Shown here in pieces: positions 2,673 to 58,642 of a DNA stretch of 64,000 bases. The stretch comes from Nannocystis pusilla. GTDB lineage: Bacteria > Myxococcota_A > Polyangia > Nannocystales > Nannocystaceae. The notes beneath the pieces were generated by a model, which saw nothing but the letters and a program-made list of their open reading frames with translations, was not told the origin of the DNA and ran no database searches. The translations under genes and the position numbers were made by a program. The stretch covers positions 3,437,168 to 3,501,167 of the forward strand of contig NZ_JAPNKE010000002.1 in NCBI RefSeq assembly GCF_026626665.1, given 5' to 3'. How positions within the stretch are numbered: the stretch's first letter is position 1; every line of letters starts with the position of its first letter.

Positions 2673-5600
2673 ATGTCGCGCGCCGGCGGTGATCCCACCC
2701 CGCGGTCCTCCGGGCCGGACCCCGATCCCACGCTTGTCGGCGACCCTCCTCCGCGGCCGGACTTCGCCACCGACGAGACTCTGGCCGGAGATCTGTCGCC
2801 CCGCGCGCGGCCCCCCGCGAGCCCGCCCCCGGACCTCGACCGCTCGTCGCTCTCGCAGCGCGAGCGCGCGCTCCAGCTCACCCGTTACGTCCTCATGCGT
2901 CGCCTCGGCGCCGGCGGCATGGGTGTCGTCTACCTCGCCTACGACCCCAGCCTCGATCGCAAGGTCGCGATCAAGCTGCTGCGCGTGGCCCCCGGCGACG
3001 GCCCCGCCCAGGCCGCGCACGCTCGCCTGCTGCGCGAGGCCCAGGCGCTGGCCCGGCTGTCGCACGGCAACGTGGTCGCGGTCCACGACGTCGGCAGCTA
3101 CGACGCCGACGCCCTCACCACCATGCGGATCGGCCCGCACCGCACGGAGCCTGTCCCGAAGGACAGGGTGCCGCAGACCGCCGGCGTGTTCCTGGTGATG
3201 GAGTACGTCCCCGGCATCACCCTCGCCCAGTGGCTCGACGACCGCGTCCGCGGCGTGCGCGAGGTCCTCGACGTGTTCCTCGCCGCCGGTCGCGGCCTGG
3301 TCGCCGCGCACGCCGTCGGCATCATCCACCGCGACTTCAAGCCCGGCAACGTCCTGGTCGGAGAGACAGGTCGGATCTGCGTGTTCGACTTCGGCCTGGC
3401 GCGCCCCGCCGGCGAGGTCGAGCCGACCAGCCCCGCCGCTTCGCCCGAACCCGGCGCCCCGATCGATCCGCTGTCCTCCTCGCTCGTGTCCGGCCCGCTC
3501 ACCCGCGTGGGCACGCTCGTCGGCACGCCGGCCTACATGGCCCCGGAGCAGCGGGGCGGCGCCGCGATCGACGAGCGCGCCGATCAGTTCAGCTTCTGCG
3601 TCGCCCTCTACGAGGGCCTCTACGGCAACCGCCCGTTCAGCGGCGACAACCTGTTCGCGCTCGAGGCGGCCAAGGCCCGCGGTCGCGTCGATCCGCCGCG
3701 TCGCCCCGCCAAGGTCCCGCCGGCGATCCACCGCGCCCTCCTGCGCGGCCTCTCGGCTGAACCCGGGGACAGGTGGCCGTCGATGCAGGCGCTGCTCGAC
3801 GCGCTCGAGCGGCCGCTGCGGCGCGACCGCAGGCGCTGGGCCCTCGCCGGCGGCGGCGCGCTGCTCGTCGCCGGCGCCGTCGCCTTCGCCCTCGCCGGCG
3901 AAGCGCCTGCGCTGTGTACCGGGGCCGCCGAGGCGCTCGCGCCGACGTGGAACCCCGAGCGACGCGCCGCCCTCGACGCCGCCTTCGCGGCCACCGGCCT
4001 GCCGTACGCCCCCGACGCGGCCGCTCGCGCCGGCGCGCGCGTCGACGCCTGGGCCGAGGCGTGGATCGCCGGCCACACCGACGCGTGCGCCGCGGCCAAC
4101 ATCCGCGGCGAGCAATCACATGACCTTTGGACAGGCGCATGCACTGCCTCGAGGATCGCCGCCACGAGCTCGACGCCCTGCTCGGCGTGCTCGCCGGGGC
4201 CGACGCCGACGCCGTTGCGCACGCCCACGACGCCGTCGAGGCCTTGCCGTCCCCGGCCCGCTGCGCCGACCTCGACGCCCTCCGCGCCGACGTCGCCCCG
4301 CCCGCGCCCGCCCTCGCCGAGGCCGTCCAGGAGCTGCGCGACCAGCTCTCGCGCGCCAGCGCCGAGGCTGCGGCCGGCCACCCCGGCGCCGGCCTCAACC
4401 TGCTCGAGGCCGCCGAGCAGCGCTCGCGCGACCTCGGCTACCGCCCGCTGCGCGCCGAGGTGCTGGCGCAGCTCGCCGAGCAGCTGTTCGTCGCCAGCAA
4501 GTACGACGACGGCGTCCGCGTCTACGGCGACGCCTACTGGGAGGCGCTCGCCGCCGGCCACGACCGCCTGGCCTTCGAGACAGCCAGCGGCTTCGCCGGC
4601 CGCCTGGCGCAGACGCTCGGCCACCCCGACGACGCCCAGCCGTGGCTGCGCCACGCCGAGGCCCTCCACGAGCGCCTCGGTCGCCCGCCTCGCCTCGGCG
4701 GCGACCTCGAGTTCCGTCGCGGCCAGATCGCCGAGGCCCGCCGCGAGTACGCCACCGCCATCGACCACTACCGCCGCTCGCTCGCCGACCTGCCCGAGCG
4801 CTCGATCTCCGCCGTCACCACCCGCCAGAACCTCGCCAACGTCCACCTCAGCCTCGGTCAGCTCGAGCCGGCGCAGATCATCTTCGAGGACCTCCTGGCC
4901 CTGCGCCGCGACATCTACGGCGAGGGTCACCCGAGCAACGCCTTCTCGCTGGCCGACCTCGGCAACGTCGCCACCCTGCGCGGCGACTTCGACACCGCCG
5001 AGCAGCACCAGCGCGCCGCCCTGACGATCCTCCGCGCCGCCCTGCCCCCGCGCCACGAGCGGCTCGCCTACCCGCTGTCGGCGCTGGCCGACATCGCCGC
5101 CCAGCGCGGCGACTTCGGCGCGGCCCTCGACGCCTACGAGGAGGCGCGGGCGATCTGGGAGCACAACTTCGGCCCGCTGAGCACCCGCGTGGCCGCCATG
5201 CTCGAGCGCCTCGCCTCGGTCCAGCAGGTGCGCGGCGAGCTCGGGCTGGCCGAGCAGCACGCCACCCGCGCCCTCGCCATCTGGAGCGCCGCGCAGAGCC
5301 CCGACCCCCAGGGCATCGTCCTGGCCCACCTCGCCCTCGCGCAGATCGAGCTCGCCCGCGACAACTACGCCGCCGCCCGCGACCACACCGACAAGGCCCT
5401 GCCCCTGTCCGCCTCGGTGCTCGGCGAGGACAACCTCTATACCGCCGTCAGTCGGGCGATCCGGGGTCGCGCTCGCGGGCCTCGGCGACCTGTCGGCGGC
5501 CGAGCGCGAGGCCGACGCCGCCGTCGCGGCGATCGAGCGCAACTACGGCGGCGACTCGCTGTGGATGTCCGAGGTCCTGACCCCTCGCGCCAGGGTGCGG

Positions 5601-6082: not shown

Positions 6083-8164
6083 ATGTTGTCCTGCTCTGGC
6101 CTGGTCTCGCGCGCGTACCTCACGGTCACGTGGCTCGCCCTCGCCGGCTGTTACAGCGGCTTCTCGGGCGCCATCCCTGACGAGCAGACGCCGCCGGAGC
6201 GCCCGCCCGTCAGCGAGGGCCCGCTGGGCGCCCCGCAGCTCTCACCGCTCGAGCTCGACGCCCTCTCGCCCGACCCTGCGCCTGGCGGCGTCGCCTTCGA
6301 CCTCCACGTCACCGGCGCCGGGTTCACGCGCTCCAGCGTCGTCGTCGTCGCCGGTCAAGAGCTGCCGACCACCTTCGTCTCGGGCGGCGAGTTGCACGCC
6401 CACAGCGGCCCGCGCAAGCGCGGCGACTACGAGGTGCTGGTCCGCCGCGACGACGAGGAGTCGCGCCAGCTGACCCTCGCCGTCGAGCGCTCGGCCCCGC
6501 GGATCCTCGTCCCCGCCGAGGTCGGGGTCGACGAGGACACCGAGGTCGGCCTCGTCGTCGACGTCGTCGACGTCGCCGATCCCGCGGCCCTGCGCGTCCA
6601 CGTGCTCGGCCTGCCGCCGGGCGCCACCTGGGACGAGCCGACCCGCACCTTCCGCTTCACCCCCGACTTCACCCAGGGCGGCGATCGCTGGACCGTCACG
6701 GTGCTCGCCCACGACCACGAGTCGCGCGTCGAGGCCACCTTCGACGTCGTCGTCCGCGACACCATCCAGCCGCCGTGGCCCGAGGTCGTCGACACCGAGT
6801 TCCTCGACGCCAGCGGATATGTCCGTTACCACCTGGCCCAAAAGACAGATGACTACCTCGACAGCCCGGGCTACGCCGGCCGCGAGTTCGTCGCCAAGGT
6901 CATGGTCCCGCTCGACGTCCCGCCAGAGGGCGTGCCGGTGCGGATCGGCCTGCACGGCTTCGCCACGGCCAACCCCGGCGGCACCGGCTCGGCCAACGAG
7001 ATCCGGATCTCCCCGCACGACCCCGACAACACCTACTGGTGGGGCTACGCCGATTCGCTGCCCGACGTCGAGCCCGCGGCCGGCGCGCGCGCCCGACTAC
7101 ACCATGCGCCGCGTGCTCCACCTCGTCGAGTACGTCGTGCGCCACCACCCGAGGCCGACCCGCAGCGCGTCTACGTCTACGGCAGCTCGATGGGCGGCGC
7201 CGGGGCGATGCTGCTCGGCCTCCTGCGCGGGCGTCACTTCGCGTACATCGACGCGCGCCTCGGTCAGGCGATCGCCCGCAACCACCGGCCGTCGCGGATC
7301 ACCCAGCTGTCCGGCTGGTGGGGCGCGCCGGAGCTCGACCTCGACGGCGGCGGCGGCCTGTCGGCGTGGGATCACATGGACCTGACGCGCGCCCTCGCCG
7401 ACTCGAGCGAGGCCCGCGACCAGTTCCTGTTCCTCAAGCACGGCAAGGACGACCCGACCATCCACTTCGGCGCCGCCGTCCTGCCGAGCCCGCGCACCGG
7501 CGAGAGCTTCTATCAGGCGCTGCAGAGCCGCGGCGTCGGCCACTTCGCCATCTGGGACGAGGGCGGCCACGGCGTCGCCGATCCTGTCCTCGGGGACAGC
7601 TGGTGGACCGGCTCGTGGGCGCCGATCAGCGGCGACGAGGCCACGCTGCGCCGCGACCGGGCGTTCCCCGCCTTCTCGTACTCCTCGCTCGACGACGACC
7701 CCGGCGTCGGCGTCGGCAACGGCAAGCAGGACTGGAGCGCCAACGCGGGCTTCGCCGGCGAGGTCGCCATCGCCGGCGACACCGGCTGGGACGGCGCCAT
7801 CGCCGGCGCGCTCGGCCGGTTCCTCCGCTGGGACGGCGCCTCGGTGGTCGACACCGTCGATCGCCTGCAATTCGCCCTGCGCGTCCACGCCGGCGACGGC
7901 GCCGACCCGCCCGCGCCCGGCTACCCGAGCGAGGGCGACCGGGTGATGGCCGAGCTGCCCGCGTTCGTCGACGTGACCCCGCGCCGCACCCAGGCCTTCC
8001 GCTGCCGCCCCGGCGAGCGCGTCGCCTGGTCGTTCGGCCAGGACCACGGCGAGGTGGTCGCCGGCCCCGACGGCAGCGTCACGATCCCCGCCCTGCCGCT
8101 GACCGACACCTGGACCACTCTGGTCCTGCGCCGCACGCTCACCGTGATCGCCGCCTCCCACTGA
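6083..8164 (+). CDS. lipoprotein with N-terminal Ig-like region and C-terminal alpha/beta-hydrolase (esterase/peptidase-like, GSSMGG nucleophile elbow); compensating frame excursion ~7085-7150
   Basis: The signal peptide plus lipobox is MLSCSGLVSRAYLTVTWLALAGC. GxSxG appears as YVYGSSMGGAGA. The expected segment PDYTMRRVLHLVEYVVRHHP is readable only in the frame of ORF 6819..7385. The ATG at 6083 was verified in sequence. Confidence 0.65.
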   Translation: MLSCSGLVSRAYLTVTWLALAGCYSGFSGAIPDEQTPPERPPVSEGPLGAPQLSPLELDALSPDPAPGGVAFDLHVTGAGFTRSSVVVVAGQELPTTFVSGGELHAHSGPRKRGDYEVLVRRDDEESRQLTLAVERSAPRILVPAEVGVDEDTEVGLVVDVVDVADPAALRVHVLGLPPGATWDEPTRTFRFTPDFTQGGDRWTVTVLAHDHESRVEATFDVVVRDTIQPPWPEVVDTEFLDASGYVRYHLAQKTDDYLDSPGYAGREFVAKVMVPLDVPPEGVPVRIGLHGFATANPGGTGSANEIRISPHDPDNTYWWGYADSLPDVEPAAGARARLHHAPRAPPRRVRRAPPPEADPQRVYVYGSSMGGAGAMLLGLLRGRHFAYIDARLGQAIARNHRPSRITQLSGWWGAPELDLDGGGGLSAWDHMDLTRALADSSEARDQFLFLKHGKDDPTIHFGAAVLPSPRTGESFYQALQSRGVGHFAIWDEGGHGVADPVLGDSWWTGSWAPISGDEATLRRDRAFPAFSYSSLDDDPGVGVGNGKQDWSANAGFAGEVAIAGDTGWDGAIAGALGRFLRWDGASVVDTVDRLQFALRVHAGDGADPPAPGYPSEGDRVMAELPAFVDVTPRRTQAFRCRPGERVAWSFGQDHGEVVAGPDGSVTIPALPLTDTWTTLVLRRTLTVIAASH

Positions 8165-8412
8165 CACCTGGCCCTCCGGCCATGTCCGTTCAGACATCCT
8201 TATTAGAGGGACATGCTTTAGCGAGCATGTTCTCCTCGGGTGGTCGCGGGCCCCGACGGCAGCGTCACGATCCCCGCCCTGCCGCTGACGACACCTGGAC
8301 CAATCTGGTCCTGCGCCGTACGCTCACGGCAATCGCCGCCTCGCACCAGACATGGCCCCCCGGCCATGTTCTTTCCGACCTTTTCAAAGGACATGCTCCT
8401 GCGAGCATGTTC
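8065..8412. repeat. tandem duplication (~170-bp unit x2) made of the last ~100 bp of the upstream gene plus a ~70-bp GGACATG-type palindromic element
   Basis: Copy 1 (8065-8232) includes the coding tail ...GPDGSVTIPALPLTDTWTTLVLRRTLTVIAASH* plus the element ...ggccatgtccgttcagacatcc...agggacatgctttagcgagcatgttctcctcg. Copy 2 (8237-8412) repeats both with ~90% identity. Confidence 0.8.
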
Positions 8413-8701
8413 TCCTCGACATGTTCTCGAGAGGCGTCGAATCGCGGCTCCGACCAGCGAGCGCCGGCGCACCGCTCGCCGGACCGTCGCGGCCAGGCTC
8501 AACCCTGTCGCCCGTAGCGCGCGTGCGGGGGCGTCGACCCCCGCGCGACCCGTCGACGCGCGGGCGCCTCGGCCCACGCGAGCGATTGCCTCCGTCGCTT
8601 GGGCCGCGAGCAGGGCTCACGAGCTCCGCGGATCTGGGTGATTGAGCGCGTTTGGCACCCGTCCCTCCGGCACCTCGACGAAGGCCGCTCGCTGCGGTTA
8701 G

Positions 8702-21846: not shown

Positions 21847-22420
21847 GCCCGAGCGCCGGCGCCCGGTCCGCTGGCGGCCGTGGCTGCGCGCCCTCCACCG
21901 CGACATCGGCTACGTCGCCGTCGGCCTCACCTTCGTCTACGCGCTGTCGGGCCTCGCGGTCAATCACATCGCCGACTGGGACCCGAACTTCGACAACTAC
22001 GAGGCGCGCCACCAGGTCGCCGTGCCGCTGCCCGAGGACGACCGCGCCGCCGCCGACGAGGTCCTCGCCGAGCTCTCCATCCAAAATCCGCCGACCGAGG
22101 TCTACCGCAGCGACGCGCGCGAGCTGTCGATCCTCCTCGACGGCAGCACCCTCCACGTCGATCTCGACAGCGGCGTCGTCCTCGAGGACGGCCAGCGCCC
22201 GCGCCTGTTGCTGCGGGTCGCCAACTGGCTGCACCTGAACCGCGGCAAGAAGGCCTGGACCTACATCGCCGACGGCTACGCCGTGTTCCTGCTGTTCCTC
22301 GCCGCCTCGGGCCTGTTCATGCTGCCCGGCCGCAAGGGCCTGGTCGGCCGCGGCGGCGTGCTCGTGCTGCTCGGCGTCGCCGTCCCTGTGCTGTACGTGA
22401 CCCTGTCCGGCGGGCCATGA
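21839..22420 (+). CDS. PepSY-associated TM-helix family membrane protein
   Basis: The start overlaps the upstream stop (ATGCCTGA). TM helices flank a periplasmic segment. The motif WLHLNRGKKAWTYIADGYAVFLLFL is characteristic of PepSY_TM. Confidence 0.6.
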   Translation: MPEPERRRPVRWRPWLRALHRDIGYVAVGLTFVYALSGLAVNHIADWDPNFDNYEARHQVAVPLPEDDRAAADEVLAELSIQNPPTEVYRSDARELSILLDGSTLHVDLDSGVVLEDGQRPRLLLRVANWLHLNRGKKAWTYIADGYAVFLLFLAASGLFMLPGRKGLVGRGGVLVLLGVAVPVLYVTLSGGP

Positions 22421-22540
22421 CCCGAAGGACATGGCCGCTCAGACATGCCCGAAAAGGCATGCGCTGAATTCCAGGCACCGCGCCTCGACCGGTTCGGACA
22501 TGTGCGAAGGGGCATGCCCGAACGGACATGCCCCCGAAGT
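22421..22540. repeat. large 14-bp-period GGACATGYCC repeat array (two clusters, about 8 units)
   Basis: ccGAAGGACATGGCC gctc AGACATGCCC gaaa AGGCATGCGC ... ttcGGACATGTGC gaag GGGCATGCCC gaac GGACATGCCC ccgaag. It lies between convergent genes. Confidence 0.75.
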
Positions 22541-38286: not shown

Positions 38287-38340
38287 AGGACATGTCGCGG
38301 AGGACATGTCGGGACAGACATGTCCCTCAGGACCCGCGGT
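38283..38340. repeat. 14-bp-period GGACATGTCS repeat array (3-4 units)
   Basis: tGAAGGACATGTCG cgGAGGACATGTCG ggacAGACATGTCC ctcaGGAC. Confidence 0.7.
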
Positions 38341-53387: not shown

Positions 53388-54317
53388 ATGGCAACCACGA
53401 TCGCCCAGATCGGTGGATTTGAACTTTGGGACATCCTGCAACTTGCGCAGACGTCGCGCATGTCGATCAAGCTGTCCGTCGAGTCGCCGCATGGCGTCGG
53501 CGCGATGTTTTTCCAGGGCGGCAACCTCGTCCACGCCGAGACCGGCGCGGCCCAGGGTGACGACGCCGTCAACACGATCCTCGACTGGCGCGAGGGGAGC
53601 GTCTCGTCTTCGCAGTTGCCCGAGAACTGCCCGCAGACGGTGCGACACACCTCGATCGTCGCGTTGTTGATGGACCGGGCCCGTCAGCGCGACGAGGCTT
53701 CGCGCAACGAGCCCCCGCCGCGCAGCGAGCCGCCGCGCAGCGAGCCGCCGCCGCAACGCGAGCCACCGCCACGTGCCGCGACGCCGCCCTCCCCTCCGCC
53801 GGTGCCGGTGATCGAGAAGCCGCAGCGAGCTGCGCCGGTCACCGTCCCGCCACTTCCGCCGCTGCCCCTCACCCCACCGACGCCGGCCTACGCGGCCGCC
53901 CCCAACGTTGCAGCGCGCGACAAGGAGCTGTCAGACATGGACCTCAAGGTCGTGAAGGCCATCCTCGAGGAGCTCGACGACCACCTCATGGGCGGCCTCA
54001 TCAGCGTCGACATCATCAGCAAGGCCTCGGGCATGTCGCTCGCGGGCATCAACTCGGCGCCCAAGGCGTGCGCCATGTTCAACCGCCTGTCCGAGCAGCT
54101 GCACAACGCGCTGACCCGCTCGGAGGACGCCCTCGCCAAGGGCATCAACAAGTTCATCATCGAGGGCGACAACGGCCTCCTGATCTTCGTCATCGAGCTC
54201 GACGATCGCCACCGCTGGGCGATCCTCGTCGACGGCGTCAAGGCGCAGCTGGGCTGGGTGTTCGTCATCATCCCCGAGCTCCAGCCGCGCCTCATCGCCG
54301 CGCTGAAGGGCCGCTGA
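53388..54317 (+). CDS. DUF4388 (N-terminal) / Pro-rich linker / Roadblock-LC7 (MglB-like, C-terminal) protein
   Basis: A GGAGGCGAA SD lies upstream. The DUF4388-like block is IGGFELWDILQLAQTSRMSIKLSVESPHGVGAMFFQGGNLVHAE. The roadblock-like block is LKVVKAILEELDDHLMGGLISVDIISKASGMSLAGI...GLLIFVIELDDRHRWAILVD. Confidence 0.7.
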   Translation: MATTIAQIGGFELWDILQLAQTSRMSIKLSVESPHGVGAMFFQGGNLVHAETGAAQGDDAVNTILDWREGSVSSSQLPENCPQTVRHTSIVALLMDRARQRDEASRNEPPPRSEPPRSEPPPQREPPPRAATPPSPPPVPVIEKPQRAAPVTVPPLPPLPLTPPTPAYAAAPNVAARDKELSDMDLKVVKAILEELDDHLMGGLISVDIISKASGMSLAGINSAPKACAMFNRLSEQLHNALTRSEDALAKGINKFIIEGDNGLLIFVIELDDRHRWAILVDGVKAQLGWVFVIIPELQPRLIAALKGR

Positions 54318-54320
54318 GCC

Positions 54321-54395
54321 GACTGTCCTGAGGGACATGTCCTCACGGGCATGTCCCTCGGCACCTGCTCCCGAGCACCTGCCCGAATAAACCTG
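54321..54395. repeat. 14-bp-period repeat array (5 units: ACATGTCC / GCATGTCCC / ACCTGCYCC)
   Basis: gactgtcctgaggg acatgtcctcacgg gcatgtccctcggc acctgctcccgagc acctgcccgaataa. Confidence 0.75.
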
Positions 54396-54412
54396 GCCGA
54401 TCGGACAGCCCC

Positions 54413-55309: not shown

Positions 55310-56113
55310 ATGGCCGACGACGATCCGATCACCGAGGGAACTCTCGATCGCCACCTCCATCGGCCGCTCGCAGCGTGGGTCCTCGAGCGGGTGCGACCGG
55401 CGCCGAGCGTCGAGCTGCTCACCCTCGCCGGACTGGTGGTCGGCCTCACCGGCGCCGTCGCCGTGCTGCTGGCCGCGCCGAGCGGCGTCGACTGGATCTT
55501 CCCCGCCTGGCTGTTGTTCGCGTTCACCGTCGCCAGCCGGTGTCGCCGCCTCCTCGCCGGCGCCGCGGAGGCCGAGGCCGGCACGCTCGAGTTTACGATC
55601 GGCGCCGCCTTTTGGGTCGCGCTGACGCTGCGAGCGGCGCCGGCCAACCCGTGGGCCTGCACCCTCGCGTCGGTGGCGCTGGTCAGCGCGCTGATCCACG
55701 TCGGGCTGCACGCCGAGCTGCGTCGCCGCTTCCGCGACCTGACCGGCGCAGGCAGCGACACAGCGCCGCCCTCGCCGCGGCCCTCGGTCGCCGCGCTGTC
55801 CCGCGGGCTCGGCCCCGCTGTGTTCCACGACATCGCGGCCGCGCTGCTCGGGCCGGAGCACACCGGCCCTCGTCCCACCCCCGGCGCGGCCCGCTCGCTG
55901 CTGGCCCCGCCGCTGCGCATGGCAGCGCCGCTGAGCCACGACACCCACCTCGCGCTGCTCTACGTCGCCACCGCCGCCGCGGCGATCCGGCTCGATCTGT
56001 CCTTCTGGACAGCCGCGCTCGCGGTCGCGGTCGGGCTCAACGTGTGGGCGCTGCTGGTCGTGTCGGCCTGGCGCCGCGCCGAGGCGCTGGTCCGCCGACT
56101 CCCGCCCGCCTGA
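55310..56113 (+). CDS. integral membrane protein (multi-TM, hypothetical)
   Basis: A 267-aa ORF with at least 5 hydrophobic helices. No confident family assignment. Confidence 0.5.
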   Translation: MADDDPITEGTLDRHLHRPLAAWVLERVRPAPSVELLTLAGLVVGLTGAVAVLLAAPSGVDWIFPAWLLFAFTVASRCRRLLAGAAEAEAGTLEFTIGAAFWVALTLRAAPANPWACTLASVALVSALIHVGLHAELRRRFRDLTGAGSDTAPPSPRPSVAALSRGLGPAVFHDIAAALLGPEHTGPRPTPGAARSLLAPPLRMAAPLSHDTHLALLYVATAAAAIRLDLSFWTAALAVAVGLNVWALLVVSAWRRAEALVRRLPPA

Positions 56114-56125
56114 GCTGCAAGTCAG

Positions 56126-56525
56126 GTGATGACTGCGCGCCGACCCGCGGGCTCAACCGAGCCGCGTACCTGGCCCAAAGGCCAGAGCGCATCCTCGCCG
56201 CAGCGCGCCCGAAGTCCGCACCTGCCCCTCAGGCAAAGTGTGACGACGCAGCGCTGCCCGCCGACTGCCGCGCCCGAGGGCCGCACCTGGCCTCAAACCT
56301 GGTGCGTCGGTTCACCGCGGCGCCAGTCCGCCGGCTACCCCCGACAGAGTCCGCACCTGACCCAAAAGCCAGGCGCATCCTCGCCGCAGCGCTGACCCGC
56401 TTGAAGTCCGCACCTGCCCCTCAGGCCAGATGTAACGCCGAAACGCTGCCTGCGGCGCCCGAAGGCCGCGCCTGGCCTCGGGCCTAGGTGCGCCGGTTCG
56501 CCGCGGCGCTGGTCCTCCGGCTGCC
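56126..56525. repeat. tandem array (about two copies of a ~195-bp unit, itself made of three related ~60-65-bp subunits carrying CCGCACCTG(N)CCC...AGGCCAG motifs), truncated on the right by the IS630 insertion
   Basis: The subunits begin at about 56150 (A), 56200 (B), 56278 (C), 56345 (A), 56402 (B) and 56458 (C). For example, gtccgcacctgacccaaaagccaggcgcatcctcgccgcagcgctg parallels cgtacctggcccaaaggccagagcgcatcctcgccgcagcgcgc. Confidence 0.7.
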
Positions 56526-56651
56526 TAGTACAGCCGCTCCGAAGTTCTCCAGGGGTTTATCGACGGCGGCGGTTCATGGATCCACCTGGATCCATCGCTG
56601 AAGGGGCCGTAGGCCTTGAAATAGAGAGCGCGCGAAAACGATCTCATTGGT

Positions 56652-57758
56652 GTGCCGGGACCGAGAGCGCAGCGACTCCGCCTGGCGCCGTCCGTCCGCA
56701 AGGAGCTGGAGGCGCTGGCGCGGAGTCGTTGCATCGAGGCGCGCCTGGTTCAGCGAGCCAGGATCGTGCTGCTGGCGGCCCAAGGGCTCCCGAACGCCGA
56801 GATTGCTCGGCGAGTGGGCTGCCACGTCGACACCGTGAGGCAGTGGCGCCAGCGCTTCGCCGAGGACGGCCGGGTGAGCACGCTCGCAGATCTGCCGCGC
56901 AGCGGCCGTCCAGCGCGGGTCTCCGCGGCAACGCGGTGCGAGCTCATCAAGCTCGCATGCGACAAGCCGGAAAACCACGGTGTCAAGCACCAGACCACGT
57001 GGACCTACGGGGCCCTGGCGAAGGTGCTGCTGCGCGAGACGGGCGTGAAGCTCAGCGTGTCCGAGGTGGGCAGGATCCTCCGCAACGAGGACTTCAGACC
57101 TCACAAGATGAGGTTGTGGCTGCACAGCCCCGATCCTGAGTTCTGTCCCAAAGTACAGCATATCTGCGACCTCTATCATCACCCGCCGGACGAGGCTCAT
57201 GTCATCTGCGTCGACGAGAAGACCGGCATGCAAGCACTCGGACGCCGGTTTCCGACCAAGCTTCCGGCCCCTGGACGGGCCGGTCGCTTCGAGTTCGAGT
57301 ACATCCGACGTGGTACGTGGTGCCTGTTCGGCGCCTTCGATGTTCGCACCGGCGAGCTGTTCGGCGAGTGCAAGGCAGGGCGCGAAGCCAAGGACCTCGT
57401 CGCATTCATGGAGGGCCTGGCGCGCAAGTACCCGACCGGCGACGTGTACGTCGTCTGGGACAACCTCAACATCCACTACGATGGTCGAGAGGAGCGCTGG
57501 GCCCGCTTCAACAAGCGTCACGGCGGCCGGTTCCACTTCGTCTACACGCCGCTGCACGCGTCGTGGGTCAACCAGATCGAGATCTGGTTCTCGCTGCTCC
57601 AGCGTCGCGTCCTGCGCCACGCCGACTTCCCCGACGCCGACGCGTTGCTTCGCGCCGTGAGGGGCTTCATCCGGCACTGGAACCGCAAGGAGGCCCACCC
57701 GTTCAACTGGACCTTCCGCGGCCACTTCGTCCAGAATGAGCGGCGACTCGCCTCATGA
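56652..57758 (+). CDS. IS630-family transposase (HTH + DDE_3)
   Basis: The N-terminal HTH is LLAAQGLPNAEIARRVGCHVDTVRQW. The DDE domain has ICVDEKTGMQ...GDVYVVWDNLNIH...NQIEIWFSLLQRRVL. 368 aa, intact. Confidence 0.9.
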   Translation: MPGPRAQRLRLAPSVRKELEALARSRCIEARLVQRARIVLLAAQGLPNAEIARRVGCHVDTVRQWRQRFAEDGRVSTLADLPRSGRPARVSAATRCELIKLACDKPENHGVKHQTTWTYGALAKVLLRETGVKLSVSEVGRILRNEDFRPHKMRLWLHSPDPEFCPKVQHICDLYHHPPDEAHVICVDEKTGMQALGRRFPTKLPAPGRAGRFEFEYIRRGTWCLFGAFDVRTGELFGECKAGREAKDLVAFMEGLARKYPTGDVYVVWDNLNIHYDGREERWARFNKRHGGRFHFVYTPLHASWVNQIEIWFSLLQRRVLRHADFPDADALLRAVRGFIRHWNRKEAHPFNWTFRGHFVQNERRLAS

Positions 57759-58078
57759 GCCGCCCTCGAACCACCGCCCGCCGCGCCGTCCCCGACACGG
57801 ACGACGACCTTCGCGCCGTCGAACAGTTCTTTCGCCGTCGTCCAAACCTCGCGCACATCCGCGTCCGCCACCGCGGGGCGCTCATCACCCTCGAGTCCGG
57901 TCCCTCAAACGACCCTATCCCGCACGCTCGCCTGCGCCGCGTGGCCGGCCAGATCTGGCAGCTTGAGATGGCCACCCACACGGGCCGCTGGCAACCGACT
58001 CCCCTCCGCGCCCCCCGCGACGCACTGCTCGAGGCGCTCGTCGCGGACTTCGGGTGGGTCCTCACGCCACAGGCCTAA
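57755..58078 (+). CDS. IS-internal accessory ORF (107 aa, hypothetical)
   Basis: The ATG overlaps the transposase TGA (ATGA). It lies inside the TIR-bounded element. Confidence 0.45.
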   Translation: MSRPRTTARRAVPDTDDDLRAVEQFFRRRPNLAHIRVRHRGALITLESGPSNDPIPHARLRRVAGQIWQLEMATHTGRWQPTPLRAPRDALLEALVADFGWVLTPQA

Positions 58079-58111
58079 CAACCCTCGAAGAACTTCGGGG
58101 CGGCTGTACTA

Positions 58112-58260
58112 GCGAACGAGTCTACACCTGACCCGAAGGCCAGGCGTACCGCCTCGCCGCGTTCTCCGCCCGAGGTCCACACCTGCCCCGAAGGCCTGAC
58201 GCACCCCAGCGCCAGCGCCGCGCACGACTGCGCTCGAGCCACCCGGCTAAGCGACGCGCG
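58112..58260. repeat. continuation of the CACCTG(N)CCC...AGGCCAG repeat array to the right of the IS630 insertion
   Basis: gagtctacacctgacccgaaggccaggcgtaccgcctcgccgcg (A-type) is followed by ccgaggtccacacctgccccgaaggcctgacg (B-type). Confidence 0.6.
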
Positions 58261-58334
58261 AGGTCCAGGTACGACGAGCGCGCCCGGGCTGCGGCGAGCG
58301 CAGCGCGGGCGCGAACGTGTCTGGCCGATCGGTC

Positions 58335-58376
58335 ATGTCCCGGGACCCTGTCCGCGGGGACACACGCCGGCGGCGC
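58335..58376. repeat. 14-bp-period palindromic repeat (3 units) immediately 3' of the ACP gene
   Basis: tcATGTCCCGGGACcc TGTCCGCGGGGACA cacgcc. Confidence 0.6.
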
Positions 58377-58642
58377 TCAGGACGCCGCGGCCTGCTTCTC
58401 TTGCACCGTCTTGTGCAGCAGGTCGACGAGCTCGTCGATGTTCGTCAGCTTGTTGAGCTCGGCGCGGGGATCTTCACCTTGAGCTCGCGCATGCTGCAGG
58501 AGACGACCTCGACGATGTCGAGGCTGTTGGCCCCGAGGTCCTTCATCGACTTGGCGGGGTCGACCTGGGCCGCATCGATCCCTTCGACGGTGTCCACGAG
58601 GTGGCGCTTGACGACGGCCAAGACATCATCGCGGGTGCTCAT
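58377..58642 (-). CDS. acyl carrier protein (discrete ACP); 1-nt frame break near 58462
   Basis: The phosphopantetheine site is LGANSLDIVEV. The C-terminal 30 aa (RAELNKLTNIDELVDLLHKTVQEKQAAAS*) read only after a 1-nt shift in a CCCCGCGCC run. Confidence 0.8.

Follow-up and report, generated by a model that had tools for sequence, protein, structure and literature searches.

A tandem array of hairpin units between convergent operons of Nannocystis: probable segmental duplication of a gene 3'-end module, interrupted by an IS630-family element

The REP/BIME elements of enterobacteria and pseudomonads are imperfect extragenic palindromes of 25-35 nt that are thought to act as hairpins at RNA 3' ends. 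They typically lie downstream of genes or between convergent genes, often in clusters whose copy number varies among strains, and REP elements carry a conserved GTAG-type 5' tetranucleotide and have an associated transposase (RAYT). Mycobacterial MIRUs and terminators lacking a T tract serve below as further points of comparison.

The locus compared here with these systems is the spacer between a membrane-protein gene (plus strand) and an ACP/HMG-CoA-synthase operon (minus strand), which are convergent, within a 64-kb stretch of Nannocystis DNA (the window, i.e. the whole sequence analyzed). A tandem repeat array with a period of about 195 bp had been proposed at this place in an earlier note. 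The array was confirmed, with an actual period of about 187 bp (offsets of 185-192 bp were returned by find_repeats) and with its start inside the upstream gene, earlier than had been described. A block contains three imperfect palindromes, named A, B and C, the core palindrome of the unit having a 10-bp stem, and the eight hairpin units follow the order A1 B1 C1 A2 B2 C2 (IS) A3 B3, all in the same orientation (8 of 8). The features are listed below with their covariance-model matches; unit A1 belonged to the training set of that model.

56048..56113, plus strand: 3' end of the membrane-protein gene (CDS 55310-56113), putative founding "C0" copy of the block
56161..56213, plus strand: unit A1, hairpin core GCGTACCTGGCC-CAAA-GGCCAGAGCGC (match 56162-56196, 32.8 bits)
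56214..56279, plus strand: unit B1 (match 56214-56247, 34.8 bits)
56280..56348, plus strand: unit C1, apparent decayed copy of the gene 3' end, hairpin CGCACC...GGTGCG (match 56279-56311)
56349..56405, plus strand: unit A2, with a 10-bp stem on the minus strand (match 56349-56382, 39.5 bits)
56406..56464, plus strand: unit B2 (match 56406-56439, 40 bits)
56465..56527, plus strand: left part of unit C2, interrupted in its 3' tail (match 56464-56497)
56528..58109, plus strand: intact-looking IS630-family insertion sequence of 1582 bp, with inverted ends, TA duplication and transposase
58112..58119, plus strand: final 8 nt of unit C2, right of the IS; the reconstructed empty site aligns with C-to-A junctions (those of block 1 and of N. 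pusilla)
58120..58174, plus strand: unit A3, with an 11-bp stem and UUCG loop on the minus strand (match 58120-58153, 41.3 bits)
58175..58240, plus strand: unit B3, the last recognizable unit (match 58175-58208, 31.9 bits)
58241..58387, minus strand: conserved 3' region of the ACP operon, context outside the variable array; it aligns in 6 of 6 close genomes and the array does not

The array was detected by find_repeats and pairwise alignment; Tandem Repeats Finder, run at a minimum score of 30, did not report it. Block 1 (56161-56348) and block 2 (56349-56527 joined to 58112-58119) are 85% identical, with a local alignment score of 176 against 22 ± 3.5 for shuffled sequences (z = 44), and A3-B3, right of the IS, match either block with z values of 11 to 13. 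The similarity is thus not that of G+C-rich low-complexity sequence, the condition under which the earlier note would have given up the array. Its description of higher-order A-B-C organization stood, and the mutual likeness of the subunits did so in part: pairwise similarity was significant for A and B (z 2.0-9.6), marginal for A and C (z about 3) and not significant for B and C, so that the relatedness of the three depends mainly on a common core of about 20 nt. The core motif CCGCACCTGNCCCNNAGGCC, allowing up to 3 mismatches, was matched 9 times in the window against 1.15 expected, and seven of these matches fall inside the array, one being the minus-strand reading of C2. An independent short-read assembly (Logan ERR2215891) was identical over the entire left array and the first 25 nt of the IS, so that an assembly artefact is ruled out for these sequences. 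A diversity-generating retroelement was set aside: substitutions between blocks showed a mixed spectrum, not an adenine-specific one, and no reverse transcriptase was seen among the annotated neighbors.

The array is non-coding, as the earlier note had stated. GC content by codon position is flat within it (0.67/0.76/0.75, compared with 0.78/0.58/0.92 in the neighboring gene), and the indels between blocks measure 1, 6 and 7 nt, which as a set are not multiples of three; a coding repeat was rejected on both grounds. The 404-aa and 89-aa open reading frames that run across the spacer are spurious, a warning for annotators. A CRISPR array was also rejected, since the would-be spacers between the cores are homologous across blocks, the 85% identity extending over the whole block. 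No tRNA or tmRNA was found by the corresponding scan. Three single-base homopolymer deletions were seen in nearby genes of the window, at 58.4-59.2 kb.

The origin of one subunit could be traced by alignment to the adjacent gene. The final ~62 nt of the coding sequence for the membrane protein can be aligned to the C units, with a score of 42 against the C unit of N. pusilla and of 37 against C2 of the window (shuffle maximum 35 in both cases, neither score being reached in 400 shuffles), while the score against C1 was reached by 5 of 400 shuffles. This gene end is conserved also in species that lack the array. Judged by these alignments, the C unit derives from those ~62 nt by copying and decay, and the array would therefore be a segmental tandem duplication of the gene 3' end together with two downstream hairpins. 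Counting the real gene end, the layout then reads as three block copies, (C0 A1 B1)(C1 A2 B2)(C2 A3 B3). No significant similarity to the gene end was found for the A and B units, whose origin is accordingly less certain than that of C.

Comparison of eight syntenic loci from Nannocystis and its relatives showed unit numbers of 8, 5, 3, 1, 1, 0, 0 and 0, with spacer lengths falling from 690 to 60 bp. A VNTR is defined by head-to-tail repeats that vary in copy number among related genomes, and this is what was observed. Related arrays are present in N. pusilla and RBIL2, the two nearest genomes by identity of the adjacent coding DNA (97.5% and 98.0%, respectively). The blocks of the window and of N. 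pusilla are only 83-87% identical against that 97.5% in coding DNA, which indicates either that the array evolves fast or that the duplication is old. The ~130 bp of spacer proximal to the ACP operon are conserved in 6 of 6 close genomes, unlike the array; this region holds a strong hairpin (58274-58318), the palindrome CTGGCCGATCGGTCA (58321-58335) and a short tract with a period of about 13-14 bp (58334-58368). In N. bainbridge, which has one unit, a perfect CCTGTCC-CGAA-GGACAGG begins 18 nt past the stop codon, and in the most distant relative a single GCGCATGTCC-GCGG-GGACATGCGC hairpin makes up almost the entire 60-bp convergent spacer.

When the array was searched for elsewhere, the orthologous loci were recovered and no other copies. 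An exact-pattern scan for the unit core in one genome per species, several Nannocystis included, gave 15 single hits, and the only true relative among them was the orthologous locus of RBIL2. Two hits in a Nannocystis MAG were attributed to chance, as they fall within coding sequence, namely a Pro-rich repeat and a gene resembling that of a peptidase; the remaining ones came from unrelated phyla, in a number close to that expected by chance. A search of 145 kb of Nannocystis DNA (the window plus the loci) with the covariance model of the unit gave no convincing further copy; weak hits at 3142 and 45129 were discarded, lying in regions with codon periodicity or standing single.

Over 17 units, the proportion of stem cells that pair was 74% for the plus strand and 81% for the minus strand, and it fell to 21-42% when the partners were slid. 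Covariation over these units was not above that of shuffles (0.129 vs. 0.120, a level reached by 143 of 500 shuffles, and 268 of 500 in a further count), and conservation of the hairpin could thus be simple inheritance. Mismatches on the minus strand were mildly biased towards G-U (24 vs. 14), and the comparison of strands, which derives from G-U versus A-C mismatches, comes to 136 vs. 125 paired cells. C(UUCG)G loops occur in several units when these are read on the minus strand, and folding of the left half of the array was slightly favored over that of shuffles for both strands (z = -2.2 and -2.4). None of the hairpins of the array is followed by a T/U tract, and for this reason a canonical intrinsic-terminator scan reports nothing in it. 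No promoter-like site was found in the array, and Rfam gave no match at E values up to 10 for the region and nothing relevant at the gathering score for the whole window. Within the units, conservation by column is highest in the left arm and at the unit junction, with T, G, C and C invariant; it amounts to 0.87 in the left arm vs. 0.76 in the right arm, and the unit junctions are conserved over about 22 nt (GCCCGARGTCCGCACCTGNCCC).

The unit hairpin was further compared with a dispersed family of hairpins, C(A/C)TGNCC-N4-GGNCA(T/G)G, which is represented by 32 sites in the window against 3.1 ± 1.5 expected. The hairpin is common in intergenic DNA, mostly just 3' of stop codons, its sites lying mostly where codon periodicity is low, and the pattern scan for the family also picked up A1 (56169) and A3 (58127). 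The family is probably what the earlier note called the "14-bp family", and its suggestion that the array is a compound form thereof held in part: the unit hairpin has the architecture of the family, and the CATG and CCTG versions stand in for each other at positions related by orthology or paralogy (the N. punicea unit, 8166 vs. 8350, and the 54.3-kb tract), which does not prove common descent. Among the 8-mers of the window, ACATGTCC is the most over-represented (16 vs. 0.9 expected), and the related GGACATGTCC, a 10-bp palindrome occurring in chains of 14-bp period, is the most over-represented word of the window. In N. punicea, CCTG replaces the CATG cores in adjacent units, a change that keeps the direct repeat and shortens the hairpin. 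In N. bainbridge, GTCC to GTTC and GGGC to GAAC changes break each 10-mer palindrome and keep the hairpin between neighboring units, which favors a stem over a duplex site. Past the stop codon of another gene, the family hairpin is conserved with two compensatory pairs across five species, and the family sites at 54.3 kb and beside the ACP gene keep their position in all species. A search of the literature on intergenic repeats of Nannocystis and myxobacteria, and on the core word, yielded nothing relevant.

The array had also been called unusual, which proved overstated: a second tandem duplication of similar size, likewise composed of a gene 3' end plus hairpins, was found at 8053-8418. The window holds two cases, independent of each other, whose periods are 187 and about 185 bp.

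As for the insertion, the 30-nt inverted ends of the element (56528-56557 and 58080-58109) are 88% complementary and occur in the window at these two places only, and the element is flanked by TA at 56526-7 and 58110-1, giving the reconstructed target gcCTAGcg. The transposase frame (56652-57758) matches PF13358 DDE_3 (E 9e-21; 74.7 bits, cut-off 28.6) and carries the N-terminal domains HTH_32, HTH_29 and HTH_23. A second frame (57755-58078; 107 aa) overlaps the transposase stop codon (ATGA) and has a weak DUF3024 match, under the Pfam cut-off. Exact-product look-ups of the transposase, this second product and the truncated ACP returned no matches. The element was missing from all seven other syntenic loci, relatives showing empty sites. 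An IS630 insertion at a CTAG inside the second C subunit had been described; family and target agreed with our results, and the position was refined to the 3' tail of C2, i.e. the C2-to-A3 linker, outside the C2 hairpin. CTAG is a rare word here, with 8 sites in the ~62 kb that preceded the insertion, and C2 holds two of these sites, the only ones in the spacer. Target availability therefore plausibly contributed to the hit, as had been supposed.

Taken together, we consider it probable that the array is a non-coding, rapidly evolving segmental tandem duplication between convergent transcription units, that is, an amplified 3'-end hairpin module that later received the IS630 insertion. The duplicated block of about 187 bp would comprise the final ~62 nt of the coding sequence for the membrane protein, from which unit C came, and the downstream palindromes A and B. 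Gain and loss of copies would be due to slippage during replication or to unequal recombination between the ~22-nt unit junctions. The A-type hairpin may be a variant of the short hairpin common in the intergenic DNA of this genome and would act on the transcript as a 3'-end structure. Its candidate roles are to terminate or pause transcription, to block 3' exonucleases and to insulate convergent operons, the roles assigned to REP/BIME and to T-tract-less terminators of G+C-rich bacteria. Additional copies would add little and are probably close to neutral. The IS630-family element inserted later, in this strain only, at one of the two rare CTAG sites of C2.

Other readings were weighed against this duplication of a hairpin module. 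The units could form a DNA-level protein-binding platform, each being a site (CCGCACCTGNCC plus its inverted partner) for a sequence-specific DNA-binding protein, for instance a regulator or one associated with the nucleoid, loaded in several copies between the operons. The stronger conservation of the left arm and junction is more easily explained by sequence-specific recognition, or by recombination hot spots, than by selection on the stem alone, and both the 14-bp chaining of the related GGACATGTCC and the preservation of the direct repeat at the expense of the hairpin in N. punicea point the same way. However, close relatives carry from 0 to 8 units in an otherwise identical gene order, so that such a platform would be dispensable, and the N. 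bainbridge changes sacrifice the palindromes to the inter-unit hairpin; we regard this reading as unlikely. A REP-like mobile cluster analogous to BIME, its units spread by a REP-associated tyrosine transposase and accumulated by repeated insertion, would account for short imperfect extragenic palindromes between convergent genes and for a dispersed family of like architecture in the window. Yet in the scan of one genome per species the unit core was a true relative only at the RBIL2 orthologous locus, the covariance model gave no convincing further copy in 145 kb, and the units are all direct, none alternating; moreover, the block structure and gene-end homology indicate local duplication rather than insertion, and the family sites at 54.3 kb and by the ACP gene do not move among species. 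Spread by such a transposase is accordingly held to be improbable.

That the units are small RNA genes, as the earlier note had proposed, or a structured cis-regulatory RNA would agree with the folding of the left half and the minus-strand C(UUCG)G loops; the missing promoter-like site and Rfam match, covariation at shuffle level, a unit that is absent or single in close relatives and a location downstream of both flanking genes make it very improbable. An assembly or sequencing artefact, or plain G+C-rich low complexity, has next to no probability: the homopolymer deletions in nearby genes would suggest an error-prone assembly, but the short-read assembly agrees over the left array and IS junction, related arrays exist in N. 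pusilla and RBIL2, and the alignment scores lie tens of standard deviations above those of shuffles. A wider conjecture, offered tentatively and with considerable doubt, is that the array is one visible product of an undescribed genus-wide REP-like system of Nannocystis, in which GGACATGTCC and a CACCTG variant would form hairpins at many gene 3' ends, bound by a dedicated protein and acting as hot spots for ~185-bp template-switch duplications that copy coding ends.

The practical value of the array itself is modest. With 0 to 8 units and a strain-specific IS, the spacer is a hypervariable locus and a possible marker for Nannocystis strain typing, and it offers an apparent example of a coding 3' end copied into non-coding DNA and drifting towards a hairpin. 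The dispersed hairpin family, absent from the literature searched, is the more interesting lead, and the recurrence of ~185-bp duplications at gene ends merits attention.

With respect to known systems, the insertion sequence resembles the IS630 family in its DDE_3 and N-terminal helix-turn-helix domains, terminal inverted repeats and TA duplication within CTAG, features by which membership is recognized, but it carries the extra 107-aa frame and is longer than typical members. The array units resemble REP/BIME in being short imperfect extragenic palindromes. They differ in being all direct, whereas neighbors in REP clusters alternate, in that the exact unit is confined to orthologous loci (the looser dispersed class having a CATG core), and in their probable origin from the duplication of a block that is partly coding. 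The likeness to VNTRs such as mycobacterial MIRUs lies in direct units of ~50-70 bp in an intergenic spacer of a G+C-rich genome, with variable copy number; in contrast to MIRUs, the array has a higher-order organization (a 187-bp block comprising three dissimilar subunits, one of them apparently derived from the 3' end of the adjacent gene), lacks small open reading frames overlapping the flanking genes and gives no evidence of many loci with the same unit. Finally, G+C-rich stem-loops located from a few to about 50 nt past stop codons may be likened to T-tract-less or bidirectional terminators. They differ from canonical intrinsic terminators in lacking the T/U tract, and from ordinary terminators in that the stem sequence is common to many sites here, which terminators do not require.

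Two convergent transcription units flank the array, which lies in their spacer and is interrupted by an insertion element:

55310-56113, plus strand: membrane-protein gene, encoding a 267-aa hydrophobic protein without a Pfam match
56528-58109: IS630-family element with inverted ends, TA on both sides and a DDE_3 transposase
ACP gene end near 58388, minus strand: ACP/HMG-CoA synthase operon, converging on the membrane-protein gene

The minus-strand operon encodes ACP, two short-chain dehydrogenases, two enoyl-CoA hydratases and HMG-CoA synthase, and the flanking protein shares 96% identity with one from Nannocystis pusilla. Eight units of 53-71 bp with a common core, (G)TCCGCACCTGNCCC-NN-AGGCCAG, were found in the order A1 B1 C1 A2 B2 C2, insertion, A3 B3. 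Block 1 (A1-C1) and block 2 (A2-C2) shared 85% identity (alignment score 176 vs. 22 ± 3.5 in shuffles), and A3-B3 matched either block with z = 11-13. The tandem repeat with higher-order A-B-C order described in the earlier note was therefore recovered, but its period is shorter than the ~195 bp given there: about 187 bp, from copy-to-copy offsets of 185-192 bp. Tandem Repeats Finder did not report the array; an independent short-read assembly (Logan ERR2215891) was identical across the left array and the first 25 nt of the insertion. As had been supposed, the array is non-coding, with GC by codon position flat across it and blocks differing by indels of 1, 6 and 7 nt.

The inserted element belongs to the IS630 family. 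Its inverted ends measure 30 nt (88% complementary counting the flanking CTAG), TA is present on each side, the reconstructed target is CTAG, and the transposase product (368 aa) contains DDE_3 (E 9e-21) and several N-terminal HTH domains, in agreement with the insertion at a CTAG of the second C subunit first noticed; the exact place is the C2 tail, in the C2-to-A3 linker. CTAG is scarce, with eight pre-insertion sites in about 62 kb, two of them inside unit C2. One ORF is usual for the IS630 family; here a second one (57755-58078, 107 aa) was found, whose ATG overlaps the transposase stop (ATGA) and which matched DUF3024 weakly (23.2 bits, below the Pfam cut-off of 24.9 bits). The other seven syntenic loci were all free of the element (0/7).

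These loci were from N. pusilla, N. punicea, N. radixulma, N. bainbridge, strain RBIL2 and two assemblies of more distant relatives, Logan run SRR33471270 (L021) and JGI metagenome 3300051389 (L022).

Spacer length and number of array units at the syntenic loci
Window, IS removed: 690 bp, 8 units
N. pusilla: 467 bp, 5 units
RBIL2: about 370 bp, 3 units
N. bainbridge: 323 bp, 1 unit
N. punicea: 275 bp, 1 unit, degenerate
N. radixulma: 207 bp, 0 units
SRR33471270 contig (81% protein identity): about 200 bp, 0 units
3300051389 contig (71% protein identity): 60 bp, 0 units

In neighbouring coding DNA, identity with the window was 97.5% for N. pusilla and 98.0% for RBIL2; the array therefore evolves far faster than its surroundings, and the variation from 0 to 8 units argues for near-neutrality of the additional copies. 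In L022, a phage-integrase-family gene (176-1756) lies upstream of the membrane-protein gene, with a 95-aa ORF between the two; Nannocystis species have an adenosyltransferase gene and a small ORF in that place, where L022 synteny is broken. On the ACP side, ~130 bp next to the stop codon were alignable in all six close genomes and contain a strong hairpin and a CTGGCCGATCGG palindrome, besides a short 14-bp-period tract. The palindrome, CTGGCCGATCGG(A/T)CA(G), occurs at 54393-54408 and 58321-58335, and also near position 5090 in the sequences L017-L020; one copy lies just upstream of a cobalamin adenosyltransferase-like gene (identical in the four species examined there) and a second 3' of the ACP gene, flanked by that region's two conserved hairpins. 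It may serve as an operator. Compared with N. pusilla as well as RBIL2, the window shows single-base homopolymer deletions at 58465, 58707 and 59103 (G5 to G4, A5 to A4, and G4 in N. pusilla to G3, RBIL2 having GCG at the last), which disrupt the genes for ACP and for the neighbouring short-chain dehydrogenase. Such a pattern is suggestive of long-read sequencing error, with real pseudogenes adjoining the IS as a possible alternative.

Regarding the origin of the block, the C unit aligned with the final ~62 nt of the membrane-protein CDS. The scores of N. pusilla C (42) and window C2 (37) exceeded the shuffle maximum of 35 and were each reached by 0/400 shuffles, and that of C1 by 5/400. Since the gene 3' end is conserved in species without the array, it is the source of the C unit, and the repeat block thus comprises gene 3' end, A and B. 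With the gene end counted as C0, the window holds three copies, (C0 A1 B1)(C1 A2 B2)(C2 A3 B3), N. pusilla two, and RBIL2 one plus a B1/A3 fusion and B3. A and B units resembled each other (z 2.0-9.6), and neither was significantly similar to the gene end. A second tandem duplication (8053-8238 / 8239-8418; period ~185 bp, segments 83-98% identical), including the last ~110 nt of the CDS ending at 8164 and a downstream hairpin tract, resembles the array in size and kind. Recurrent ~185-bp duplications at gene ends are a lead worth following.

The unit cores are imperfectly palindromic, with 3-5-nt loops and stems reaching 10-11 bp at most. Among 17 units from five genomes, 74% (plus strand) and 81% (minus) of the cells were paired, against 21-42% for slid partners. 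A-type units folded better on the minus strand, then with C(UUCG)G loops, yet pairing gave no confident strand. An array of small-RNA genes, as suggested earlier, is unlikely: folding of the left half was slightly better than in shuffles on both strands (z about -2.3), but covariation across the 17 units was not above shuffles, Rfam and tRNA searches gave no array match, and neither a sigma-70-like promoter nor a T-tract-trailed hairpin was detected in the array. A DNA-binding platform, for which the greater conservation of the left arm over the right would speak, is a possible though less probable reading. The hairpins most probably act as transcript 3'-end structures, judging from their position and form, stopping or stabilising RNA and separating the convergent operons.

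Related hairpins, C(A/C)TGNCC - loop of 3-5 nt - GGNCA(T/G)G, occurred 32 times in the window (3.1 ± 1.5 in Markov shuffles); 27 have a 4-nt loop, and most fall at sites of low codon periodicity. Among 8-mers, ACATGTCC/GGACATGT showed the strongest over-representation in the window (16 vs. 0.9 expected). The hairpins are built on GGACATGTCC, chains of which with 4-nt gaps (e.g. 1340-1395, 54317-54412) give a 14-bp period; they are probably the 14-bp family to which the earlier note had likened the array.

Sites, first half of the window: 67, 1340-1395, 5869, 8167-8410, 10331, 15158, 22416-22530
Sites, second half: 38291-38320, 40119, 51095, 54317-54412, 58334-58368, 61793

According to the gene map, most sites lie just 3' of stop codons or between convergent genes (5869, 8167, 10331, 22416-22513, 40119, 54317, and by the ACP stop), and in the most distant relative (L022) the family hairpin makes up almost the whole 60-bp spacer. 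The hairpin at 54328-54361 (GAGGGACATGTCC-TCAC-GGGCATGTCCCTC, 15-bp stem), right after the stop of a PatA_N-domain gene, was kept in five species with two compensatory pairs. The proposed tie between array and family held in part: units A1 and A3 were also detected by the pattern scan, and CATG and CCTG versions were exchanged at orthologous or paralogous sites, but the exact array core is not dispersed. Its scan in one genome per species found only the RBIL2 orthologue, and a covariance model revealed no convincing unit outside known loci in the 145 kb searched. A perfect CCTGTCC-CGAA-GGACAGG hairpin at 3150-3167, identical to the N. bainbridge single unit, falls within a strongly codon-periodic region (likely a protein-kinase gene) and may be due to chance. 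The dispersed family is a lead worth following.

The array would have started from a common-family hairpin located 3' of the membrane-protein gene (in N. bainbridge, it begins 18 nt past the stop codon). This hairpin would then have been multiplied by presumed tandem duplications, one extending back into the CDS, and unit number continually altered via unequal exchange between conserved unit junctions; lastly, the IS630 element would have inserted at one of the two rare C2 CTAG sites. No literature on these repeats was found. In its behaviour the array resembles a REP cluster or minisatellite, yet it differs from REP/BIME in lacking a dispersed identical unit and alternating orientation, and an origin as a REP/RAYT-type mobile element is unlikely. 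By definition it is a variable-number tandem repeat.
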